A stretch of 64,000 bases of DNA from Heptranchias perlo (Eukaryota): contig NC_090334.1 of NCBI RefSeq assembly GCF_035084215.1, forward strand, positions 53,072,001-53,136,000. Direction: 5' to 3'. Of the stretch, positions 61,187 through 64,000 are shown one piece after another. The notes below the pieces were generated by a model that made no database searches, had not been told where the DNA came from, and was given only the letters and a program-made list of their open reading frames with translations. The position numbers were made by a program, and so were the translations under genes. The first letter of the stretch is position 1. The number at the start of each line of letters is the position of its first letter.

Positions 61187-61333
61187 GATAGTGTTTGAAA
61201 TCAGAGCTTCCTTACTGAACCAGCTGCACTAGCAGACCAGCTACGTTATACTGACCAGCTACGTTATACTGAACTAGCAGACCAGCTACGTTATACCGCC
61301 AAACAGACGAGGCAACGGAACTACGCTGCCTAC

Positions 61334-63688
61334 ATGAAAACCAAGAGCAGGAAGCTTGAGAAACTCGGCATCACCACCAGCAACGACCAAGCTTCCCCTG
61401 GTACCACGGTTGCAACCACAGGGAAGTCTATTGTCAATTTATCCGACCACACCCTTCAAGCAGACGAAATCGAAGTTCTCAGCCGAGGGCTCAATTTCTG
61501 CCCCACTACCAAAATGGATCCCACTAGTCTCGCGGCGGACACAGAGGAATTCATCAGGAGAATGAGGCTCCGGGAATTCTACCACAAACCCCAAGATTTC
61601 AGCAGCGAACCCAATGAGACAATCGACGATCCGGAACAGCAGACAGAGGGATCCGCGGTACAGCAACCGAAGAGGAAAGAGTCAAACTGGACTCCTCCGG
61701 AGGGTCGCTGCCCTCAGCTGGACATGTATGCTCAAGCTGTCAGGAAATGCGTCAATGCCAGATTCATCAGCCGCACTCAGAAGACAGTCCAGAATATCAC
61801 CCGAGCACAACGCAACGCCATCAACGCTCTCAAGACCAACCGCAACATCGTCATCAAACCAGCGGACAAAGGAGGAGCCATAGTCATACAGAACAGAACA
61901 GACTATTGCAAAGAAGCATACCGACAACTGGACAACCAGGAGCACTACAGACGGTTACCCGCAGATCCGACCAAAGAACACACCCACCAGCTCAACAAAC
62001 TGATCAAGACCTTCGATCCAGACCTTCAAAGCATCCTACGCACTCTCATCCCACGTGATCCCCGCGTGGGAGACTTCTACTGCCTCCCAAAGATACACAA
62101 AGCCAACACACCCGGACGTCCCATCGTATCAGGCAACGGAACCCTGTGTGAGAACCTCTCTGGATACATCGAGGGCATCCTGAAACCCATCGTACAGGGA
62201 ACCCCCAGCTTCTGTCGCGACACTACAGACTTCCTACAAAAACTCAGTACCCACGGACCAGTTGAACCAGGAACACTTCTCACCACGATGGACGTCTCGG
62301 CACTATACACCAGTATCCCCCACGATGACGGCATCGCTGCGACAGCATCAATACTCAACACCAACAACAGCCAATCTCCGGAAGCCATCCTACAACTCAT
62401 CCGCTTCATCCTGGATCACAATGTCTTCACCTTCGATAACCAGTTCTTTACCCAAACACACGGAACAGCCATGGGGACCAAATTCGCACCCCAATACGCC
62501 AACATTTTCATGCACAAGTTCGAGCAGGACTTCTTCACTGCACAAGACCTCCAACCAACACTATACACCAGATACATCGACGACATTTTCTTTCTATGGA
62601 CCCACGGCAAGGAATCACTAAAGAGACTACACGATAACATCAACAAGTTCCATCCCACCATCAAGCTCACCATGGACTACTCCTCAGAATCAGTTTCTTT
62701 CTTGGACACACGAATCTCCATCAAAGACGGGCACCTCAGCACCTCACTCTACCGCAAGCCCACGGACAACCTCACGATGCTCCACTTTTCCAGCTTCCAC
62801 CCTAACCACGTCAAAGAGGCCATCCCCTATGGACAGGCCCTGCGAATACACAGGGTCTGCTCAGACGAGGAGGAACGCGATGGACACCTACAGACGCTGA
62901 AAGACGCCCTAGTAAGAACGGGATATGTCGCTCGACTCATCGATCGACAGTTCCGACGGGCCACAGCAAAAAATCGCATGGACCTCCTCAGGAGACCAAC
63001 ACGGGACGCAACCAACAGAGTACCCTTTGTCGTCCAGTACTTCCCCGGAGCGGAGAAACTACGCCATGTTCTCCGCAGCCTTCAACATGTCATCAATGAG
63101 GACAAACACCTCGCTATGGCCATCCCCACACCTCCACTACTCGCCTTTAAACAGCCACCCAACCTCAAACAGACCATCGTTCGCAGCAAATTACCTAGCT
63201 TTCAAGAGAACAGCGTCCACGACACCACACAACCCTGCCACGGTAACCTCTGCAAGACATGCCAGATCATCGACACAGATACCACCATCACACGAGAGGA
63301 CACCACCCACCAGGTGCATGGTTCATACTCCTGTGACTCGGCCAATGTTGTCTACCTCATACGTTGCAGGAAAGGATGCCCCAGAGCATGGTACATTGGC
63401 GAGACCATGCAGACGCTGCGACAACGGATGAACGGACACCGCGCAACAATCGCCAAACAGGAGGGTTCCCTCCCAGTCGGGGAACACTTCAGCAGTCATG
63501 GACATTCATCCACCGACCTTCGGGTAAGCGTACTCCAAGGCGGCCTTCGAGACACACGACAACGCAAAATCGTCGAGCAGAAATTGATAGCCAAGTTCCG
63601 CACCCATGAGGACGGCCTCAACCGGGATCTTGGGTTCATGTCACGCTACACGTTACCCCACCAGCGAACAAATGTTATCTGTTTTTAA
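61334..63688 (+). CDS. PLE reverse transcriptase + GIY-YIG endonuclease (784 aa from first ATG)
   Basis: IKPADKGG, YCLPKIHK, GRPIVS, MDVSALYTSIP, GTAMG, YTRYIDD, FLD, YRKPT; Cys-rich linker CHGNLCKTC; VVYLIRC...WYIGET...R...H. Confidence 0.95.
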   Translation: MKTKSRKLEKLGITTSNDQASPGTTVATTGKSIVNLSDHTLQADEIEVLSRGLNFCPTTKMDPTSLAADTEEFIRRMRLREFYHKPQDFSSEPNETIDDPEQQTEGSAVQQPKRKESNWTPPEGRCPQLDMYAQAVRKCVNARFISRTQKTVQNITRAQRNAINALKTNRNIVIKPADKGGAIVIQNRTDYCKEAYRQLDNQEHYRRLPADPTKEHTHQLNKLIKTFDPDLQSILRTLIPRDPRVGDFYCLPKIHKANTPGRPIVSGNGTLCENLSGYIEGILKPIVQGTPSFCRDTTDFLQKLSTHGPVEPGTLLTTMDVSALYTSIPHDDGIAATASILNTNNSQSPEAILQLIRFILDHNVFTFDNQFFTQTHGTAMGTKFAPQYANIFMHKFEQDFFTAQDLQPTLYTRYIDDIFFLWTHGKESLKRLHDNINKFHPTIKLTMDYSSESVSFLDTRISIKDGHLSTSLYRKPTDNLTMLHFSSFHPNHVKEAIPYGQALRIHRVCSDEEERDGHLQTLKDALVRTGYVARLIDRQFRRATAKNRMDLLRRPTRDATNRVPFVVQYFPGAEKLRHVLRSLQHVINEDKHLAMAIPTPPLLAFKQPPNLKQTIVRSKLPSFQENSVHDTTQPCHGNLCKTCQIIDTDTTITREDTTHQVHGSYSCDSANVVYLIRCRKGCPRAWYIGETMQTLRQRMNGHRATIAKQEGSLPVGEHFSSHGHSSTDLRVSVLQGGLRDTRQRKIVEQKLIAKFRTHEDGLNRDLGFMSRYTLPHQRTNVICF

Positions 63689-63918
63689 TATAATGGGTCA
63701 TTTGCTGGCTTTCTCTGCCTTCCGGATGTTTCTGCCTCTCTCTGTTTTTTTTCCCTGTTTGTTTTTTTGTTGAATGTGTATTCGGGGGTTCTGCAGGTGA
63801 CACCTCTCTGTCTGAACACGGTGATTGCCTTGGCAACGGGCAGTTGCAGGGGCAGTCTGTAAACACCATGTATTGTTCTGTGATGTATAAATGCGTAGGC
63901 TTCAAGGAGCTCCTGAAC

Positions 63919-63959
63919 ATTTACCTGACGAAGGAGGAAGCCTCCGAAAGCTTGTGAAT
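63919..63959 (+). ncRNA. Minimal type I hammerhead ribozyme motif
   Basis: AUUUAC CUGACGA A GGAGG-AAG-CCUCC GAAA GCUU GUGAAU; stem I AUUUAC/GUGAAU, stem II 5 bp, stem III reduced to the palindrome AGCU. Confidence 0.8.
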
Positions 63960-64000
63960 TTAAAATAAAATTGCTGGACTATAACTTGGTGTTGTAAAAT

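Follow-up and report, generated by a model that had tools for sequence, protein, structure and literature searches.

A probable young, 5′-truncated copy of an abundant, vertically inherited Neptune-type Penelope-like element in the shark Heptranchias perlo

Neptune elements are widespread in vertebrates, according to a survey that sampled one chondrichthyan, which its supplements may list (bioRxiv 10.64898/2026.07.22.740005), and active members are known from killifish (PMC12602865). As set out in the figures and accompanying text of PMC8557442, a CX2-5CxxC linker marks Neptune together with Nematis and Naiad; Neptune is paraphyletic in the published reverse transcriptase (RT) tree. A (TA)n target preference has been proposed for Neptune as a typical rather than universal trait. 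The hammerheads of metazoan Penelope-like elements (PLEs) are described as minimal type I, in which a bulged base precedes a stem II of 5 bp and the 15.2/16.2 pair is palindromic (PMC4209133), and microhomology-mediated 5′ joining has been reported for PLEs (PMC3846280). The Poseidon element of Anolis carolinensis (PAc) has been reconstituted in vitro (PMC11167929).

Here we describe a PLE at the right-hand edge of a stretch of 64,000 nucleotides from Heptranchias perlo (contig NC_090334.1, positions 53,072,001 to 53,136,000; hereafter the window, numbered from its first letter). With high confidence we regard it as a young, 5′-truncated copy of an abundant and vertically inherited Neptune-type family of this shark. 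The features of the locus are as follows.

17895–54652, minus strand: ZNF839 gene, 8 exon blocks
42040–42269, no strand assigned: fold-back insertion from the same family, made of two pLTR ends set head to head, inside a ZNF839 intron
55243–55317, minus strand: tRNA-Lys(CTT) gene, adjoining ZNF839 upstream
61184–61230, no strand assigned: host flank on the 5′ side, from an unrelated repeat to the junction
61231–61275, plus strand: non-native 5′ junction in which the element's first bases are re-copied twice (21 nt and 17 nt), with flank-like bits interleaved
61276–63688, plus strand: 5′-truncated PLE open reading frame, 803 codons of genuine element
61865–62653, plus strand: reverse transcriptase core, from the DKG motif to the Pfam RVT_1 match
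62573–62584, plus strand: YIDD motif of the RT
63236–63334, plus strand: zinc-finger-like CX4CxxC linker, its next Cys following after a 23-aa spacer (Neptune type, by comparison with Fig. S2 of PMC8557442)
63347–63628, plus strand: GIY-YIG endonuclease (VVY...YIG) that carries the CCHH motif and the conserved residues R, H, E and N
63653–63688, plus strand: 11-residue C-terminal extension, a subfamily marker
63689–63918, plus strand: 3′ untranslated part, or pLTR body, covered by family contigs
63919–63959, plus strand: minimal type I hammerhead ribozyme motif, from pattern scan and fold
63960–64000, plus strand: pLTR end, cut by the window edge, compared with the right arm of the 42-kb insertion

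The open reading frame runs for 784 codons from the ATG at 61334 to the stop at 63686–63688, and its frame is open from 61199. A preliminary description, made from the sequence, had reported an ORF of this length without a stop and with RT motifs, Cys-rich linker and VVY...YIG intact; alignment of the motifs with 11 homologs bears this out, as does a Pfam RVT_1 match to the protein (E = 3e-10). Counting residues from 61199, the RT motifs are DKG (223–225), D365 and YIDD (459–462), the linker cysteines are C680-x4-C685-x2-C688 plus C712, and the endonuclease residues are VVY (717–719), C723/C727, YIG (732–734), R743, H747, E793 and N808, the CCHH motif being made up of C723, C727, H747 and H763/H769. 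The whole protein gave no Pfam match to GIY-YIG at E ≤ 0.01; its C-terminal 152 residues gave one (E = 3.5e-4, 21.3 bits) that falls slightly below the cut-off of 22.6, which the turtle homolog P0020 passes. Attributes of endonuclease-bearing (EN+) PLEs that are found here include RT and GIY-YIG in one ORF, DKG upstream of the RT core, and CCHH. Most family copies (71% of depth) have a stop codon at 63653–63655, and the C-terminal extension of the window copy recurs in 5 of 22 H. perlo paralogs. A sequence search of the PDB with the element protein returned a single match (E = 0.66), and a weak Pfam match to LT-IIB on the homolog P0004 (E = 0.046) was taken as chance.

By the spacing of its linker and by a hand-counted block of RT motifs, the element appears to be a Neptune-type Penelope-like retrotransposon. 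The Cys-rich linker by itself had earlier been read as the mark of this type; the assignment is supported, but the linker alone does not carry it, being found also in Nematis and Naiad (PMC8557442). Naiad is excluded because the endonuclease is C-terminal here. The spacer from the CxxC to the next Cys is 23 aa in the window copy and 22–26 aa in 103 of the 109 homologs (out of 120) that have the linker motif; by hand count in Fig. S2 of PMC8557442, four Neptune rows have spacers of 25–27 aa and three Nematis rows have spacers of 7 aa. Across the 40-column RT4 block of Fig. S1 of that paper, again by hand count, the window copy agrees with each of two Neptune rows in 21 columns, with the Poseidon row in 13, and with two Nematis rows in 15 and in 17. 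The Neptune references in these figures (Neptune-1_Ac, DrerioNep1, Neptune1_Nv and Penelope1_XT) have in common with the window family an RT and C-terminal GIY-YIG in one ORF, the DKG, the CX2-5CxxC linker with its long spacer, the CCHH motif and a minimal hammerhead in the pLTR. Unlike them, the window family is shark-specific, the window copy is truncated, and its visible 5′ flank is neither (TA)n nor a microsatellite.

Several other groups were considered and set aside. Nematis has a C-terminal endonuclease and a CX2-5CxxC linker, as here, but its spacer is reduced to 7 aa against 23 and its match over the RT4 block is just 15–17 of 40. Penelope and Poseidon are defined by having no CX2-5CxxC linker, whereas the window copy has one. 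Naiad and Chlamys, with an N-terminal endonuclease, DKA or DK, and no canonical hammerhead, differ from an element with a C-terminal endonuclease, DKG and a hammerhead, and Hydra (no CCHH, DKT, a CxCX5C linker) is not matched by the motifs of the window copy. The likeness to PAc extends to the order of domains, a hammerhead in the pLTR and an A+C-rich tail on one end, and PAc and the 42-kb insertion share an AT-rich target; the PAc ORF begins inside the hammerhead, as described in PMC11167929, whereas no ATG was seen in the terminus of the window copy. A tree of the RT core (46 rows, quick search), which includes 45 of the 120 homologs, namely the named rows and P0001–P0040 with at least 250 aligned residues, and which is confined to relatives, without named Neptune, Nematis or Poseidon references, joins the window copy with Heptranchias (SH-aLRT 98) and then with other sharks plus P0008 (95).

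The start of the element had been placed at 61228. Genuine homology begins at 61276; the preceding 61231–61275 is re-copied junction DNA, with repeat units beginning at 61231, 61253 and 61276, and keeps the frame open by chance. The companion claim, that the frame is open upstream of the ATG and that the native N-terminus was probably lost, survives in its second part; as to the first, what lies open before 61276 is not genuine element. Two full-length relatives, P0004 with 881 aa (64%) and the turtle protein P0272 with 895 aa, extend ∼99 residues further at the N-terminus. This extension includes a block conserved from sharks to turtles that is missing from the window copy, and tblastn of P0004 residues 1–140 against the window gave no match. 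The first in-frame ATG, at 61334, corresponds to the internal Met119 of full-length P0004, so that 118 residues are missing before it. Nine contigs of sequencing run X1 have another sequence before 61276; read in frame by hand, this loose end matches residues 19–28 of Scyliorhinus P0260 at 5 of 10 positions, against 0 of 10 for the window's own upstream residues. These comparisons indicate a copy 5′-truncated at 61276, without ∼99 N-terminal residues and without an upstream pLTR.

An autonomous copy would have a full-length ORF and an upstream pLTR, and the window copy has neither. Since it is without the promoter of an upstream pLTR and without the N-terminal domain, the copy is probably inactive, or dead on arrival, barring a full-length tandem beyond 64000. 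Microhomologies of 7–8 nt link the flank to the end of the element (61219–61225 with 61281–61287; 61213–61220 with 61267–61274), and we infer that the re-copies at the junction were made by repeated microhomology annealing. Numerous contigs of the flank repeat stop at 61183, and no empty-site joint or loose end at 61230 was seen among the matches listed.

At the other end of the element the preliminary description was incomplete, having overlooked the minimal hammerhead at 63919–63959. Its layout comprises stem I (63919–24/63954–59), the core (63925–31), a bulged A, stem II (63933–37/63941–45), GAAA (63946–49) and a palindromic 15.2/16.2 pair, with a predicted cut after 63953. The fold (z = −2.2) supports stems I and II, and one contig has a compensatory change from G-C to A-U at 63937/63941. 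An Rfam search of 63500–64000 gave one chance match and did not detect the hammerhead. Together these features point to a terminal pLTR with a hammerhead motif, of which a further ∼12 nt, or 47 nt if there is a tail, would be expected past 64000; the ribozyme may cleave in this family. In run X1 depth is highest over the hammerhead and 137 contigs start there (63923), and very short terminal copies that begin with the ribozyme therefore appear to be abundant.

The 42-kb insertion carries a 35-nt A+C-rich tail (71% A+C) on a single arm and is bounded by a perfect 12-bp target-site duplication; its head-to-head pLTR layout with a tail matches that in the legend to Fig. 2 of PMC8557442. EN+ PLEs may have a tail of 30–40 nt and a target-site duplication, and this insertion has both; in the window copy the corresponding stretch lies past the window edge. 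The near-identity of the insertion with the terminus of the window copy, noted previously, holds, with 1 difference over 75 nt and 2 over 81 nt. Because one of the differences falls at a site split about 50:50 within the family, so short a match is weak evidence of recency.

The best homologs of the element are 93–96% identical in H. perlo, 77–85% in Scyliorhinus and 80% in Mustelus. Among named sharks element identity tracks host identity, and the family appears to have been inherited vertically in sharks. Paralogs were drawn from RefSeq protein models and sequencing-run contigs. The 22 H. perlo RefSeq paralogs compared (of 61 in three clusters) are 93.3–98.8% identical to the window copy in amino acids, the five with the C-terminal extension 96.2–98.8%; none of the 22 covers the N-terminus. 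Closest are P0242, P0254, P0243 and P0258 (98.0–98.8%, from clusters of 54 and 6 members), of which the first three have the extension. Copies diverged by several percent, one half of what the preliminary description had named as speaking against recent mobility, are thus present. In RefSeq the H. perlo paralogs are annotated as uncharacterized proteins or are fused into host gene models.

Run X1, possibly made from the sample that was assembled, covers the unique flank at a depth of 25.2 with 0 differences over 509 nt. Its summed contig depth on the element is 8,000–139,000 times that of the unique flank, a figure that overlapping short contigs inflate and that is not a copy number. Depth climbs 16-fold from 5′ to 3′, a gradient of the kind produced by 5′ truncation of copies. 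Among 50,603 contigs (flank repeats included) 30% are at least 99% alike, 36% are 95–99%, 28% are 90–95% and 5% are under 90%; 70% of them, with the same inclusion, thus fall under 99%. From this spread of contig and paralog identities it follows that the family, abundant and of mixed age, was amplified over a long time, with the window copy in the youngest group. Variant sites in the ORF number 25 among those listed, 19 shared and 6 near-private. Synonymous changes make up 10 of the 19 shared sites listed against 25% expected (P = 0.01), a count that CpG sites may bias, and the excess is consistent with selected source lineages. At the near-private sites 4 of 6 changes are non-synonymous, and these four residues differ from every H. 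perlo paralog that covers them. A metagenome scan returned one weak locus (L001, 29% identity) from 59 candidate stretches, which was left out of the comparisons.

Several properties suggest that the window copy is young in sequence terms. The earlier observation that its CpGs are undecayed is upheld: CpG observed/expected is 0.83 in the element ORF against 0.31 in window positions 1–61200, and is 0.39–0.55 in four older retroelement fragments of the window. Under simulated neutral decay the share of runs (400 each) that kept the ORF free of damage was 65% at 0.2% divergence, 8.5% at 1% and 1% at 2%; the copy is judged young because such an ORF seldom survives 1–2% divergence. It differs from its nearest assembled relatives by 0.26% (near-private sites) to 0.7–0.8% (contigs of runs X9, X10 and X5), which places it in the youngest group of the family. 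The claim that the family was mobile very recently is accordingly to be divided: the youth of the window copy is supported, whereas youth is not shared by every member of the family (paralogs 93.3–98.8%). A young subfamily appears to have been mobile late in the history of the lineage; since sharks mutate slowly, 'very recently mobile' would hold in sequence terms alone. That this subfamily is still moving today is a proposition to which we give about even weight.

From known PLE biology (PMC11167929, PMC8557442), and by analogy with the Anolis Poseidon as described there, the insertion may have arisen as follows. A full-length source element elsewhere would have given rise to RNA and to a protein of ∼890–900 aa, whose GIY-YIG domain would nick AT-rich target DNA. 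The RT would then prime inside the RNA at the A+C-rich 3′ tail, copy ∼2.8 kb and stall ∼99 codons before the start of the ORF, and the cDNA end would join the target through repeated microhomology annealing, leaving the 21- and 17-nt re-copies.

The most serious competing account, which we consider unlikely though by no means negligible, is that the insertion is old and fixed, looks young since sharks mutate slowly, and belongs to a family now extinct. At the rate of 7e-10 per generation given for the epaulette shark (PMC10587355), 0.26–0.8% divergence corresponds to 3.6–11.5 million generations if it is entirely germline decay, and most paralogs are only 93–97% identical. Yet decay of that kind should have fallen on CpGs: with a CpG rate multiplier taken from other vertebrates (5–10-fold), 37–54% of differences should be CpG transitions, whereas just 1 of the 12 differences between the window copy and the X10 contigs is one (P = 0.03 at 5-fold, 0.001 at 10-fold, 0.13 at 3-fold), and 6 of the 12 are synonymous. 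Most of these differences were probably present already in the source lineage or introduced by the RT, and the insertion would for that reason be younger than the raw divergence figure. Another account is horizontal movement of the young subfamily, under which organisms B and C would have copies of it ∼99% identical. Over 2009 nt the X10 contigs show 14 differences from the window, as do the X9 contigs over 1738 nt, and both runs come from other studies and lack the unique flank. However, among the pieces listed the long near-identical X9 and X10 contigs have no host flank; these contigs break at sites where the shark's copies vary among themselves (61900, 62380–83, 63456, 63509 and 63654); depth is a near-constant fraction of that in X1 (0.8–1.5e-5 in X10, 3.5–6.0e-5 in X9); in X10 it is 6–25 on the element against 52–64 for two contigs matching just a short motif; and, among named sharks, the element follows its host in identity. 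Trace shark DNA is the best explanation of these contigs, and we rate transfer as improbable, giving equally little credence to the fuller version in which the youngest subfamily is still jumping and recently crossed, out of or into the shark, to two other organisms.

We attach a similarly small probability to the window copy being itself an active source, either by starting at the Met of 61334 with transcription from host DNA or as the truncated upstream half of a partial tandem, its pLTR driving a full-length unit that lies past 64000. Every catalytic motif is intact, an arrangement in partial tandem, one unit truncated and the other full-length, is typical and can be active (PMC3846280), and the 3′ junction, tail and target-site duplication lie outside the window, where a downstream active unit is possible; family sequence also occurs in run X5, which is guessed to be RNA, although none of the listed runs with family sequence is recorded as RNA. 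Against this, the 118 residues missing before the ATG include the block conserved from sharks to turtles, a region that in the Anolis Poseidon forms a putative nucleic-acid-binding and dimer helix (PMC11167929), and four residues are unlike those of every paralog. Nor do the X5 contigs speak for this copy: they differ from it at near-private sites, the unique flank has no X5 depth, and the 3′/5′ depth gradient is 863-fold against 16-fold in DNA, which suggests mostly 3′ fragments. Domestication of a PLE as a host gene would account for the long intact ORF, but only for that, and seems to us exceedingly improbable: the copy is one among very many, is truncated and bears a junction scar, its near-private changes are as often non-synonymous (4 of 6) as neutrality predicts, and no identical annotated protein was found among the homologs. 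A young truncated copy, derived from a source element elsewhere, remains the reading that we prefer.

A literature search turned up no publication on this family, which may already be catalogued in Repbase or Dfam. It is another Neptune-type member, real but ordinary, and its importance is modest; only confirmed present-day activity or horizontal transfer would raise it. As a resource it offers a PLE that is abundant, was amplified recently and keeps its catalytic domains intact, in a shark that evolves slowly. It is a candidate for the biochemistry of the poorly characterised Neptune clade and a candidate source of insertion markers in H. perlo. It also exposes an annotation problem, dozens of copies being called genes or fused into host models in RefSeq. 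The RefSeq models P0023, P0248 and P0269 (epn2, dipk2ab and turtle endothelin-3) contain PLE coding sequence, either as exonised copies or through annotation errors.

The element is on the strand opposite to ZNF839 and ∼6.6 kb upstream of the start codon of that gene. The three large exons of ZNF839 are identical to H. perlo P0121 over 384/384, 365/365 and 311/311 aa, against 77–91% in other sharks, a match that identifies the host as H. perlo down to the species. The promoter region of ZNF839 at about 54–56 kb is CpG-rich. No host gene was identified around the insertion, because a scan of 54.8–61.3 kb for known kinase motifs found none. At the far end of the window an exon at 259–615 (minus strand), which gave no Pfam match, presumably resembles the N-terminus of TECPR2, and a CpG-rich stretch near 7–8 kb may be the promoter of its gene. 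Next to the element, at 60930–61183, a short repeat of high copy number is bounded by 7-bp terminal inverted repeats; it is probably a MITE and is also endogenous in organism B. Non-LTR retroelement RT fragments lie at 25491–26669 (plus strand, RVT_1 E = 4e-27) and 27022–27540 (plus strand), and we take both to be CR1/L2-like. Several decayed copies of an older and distinct PLE family are found at 27856–29900, 37700–40240 and 55540–57980; they are 30–39% identical in amino acids to the element ORF and 80–93% among themselves, and one retains a hammerhead-like core at 55856 on the minus strand.
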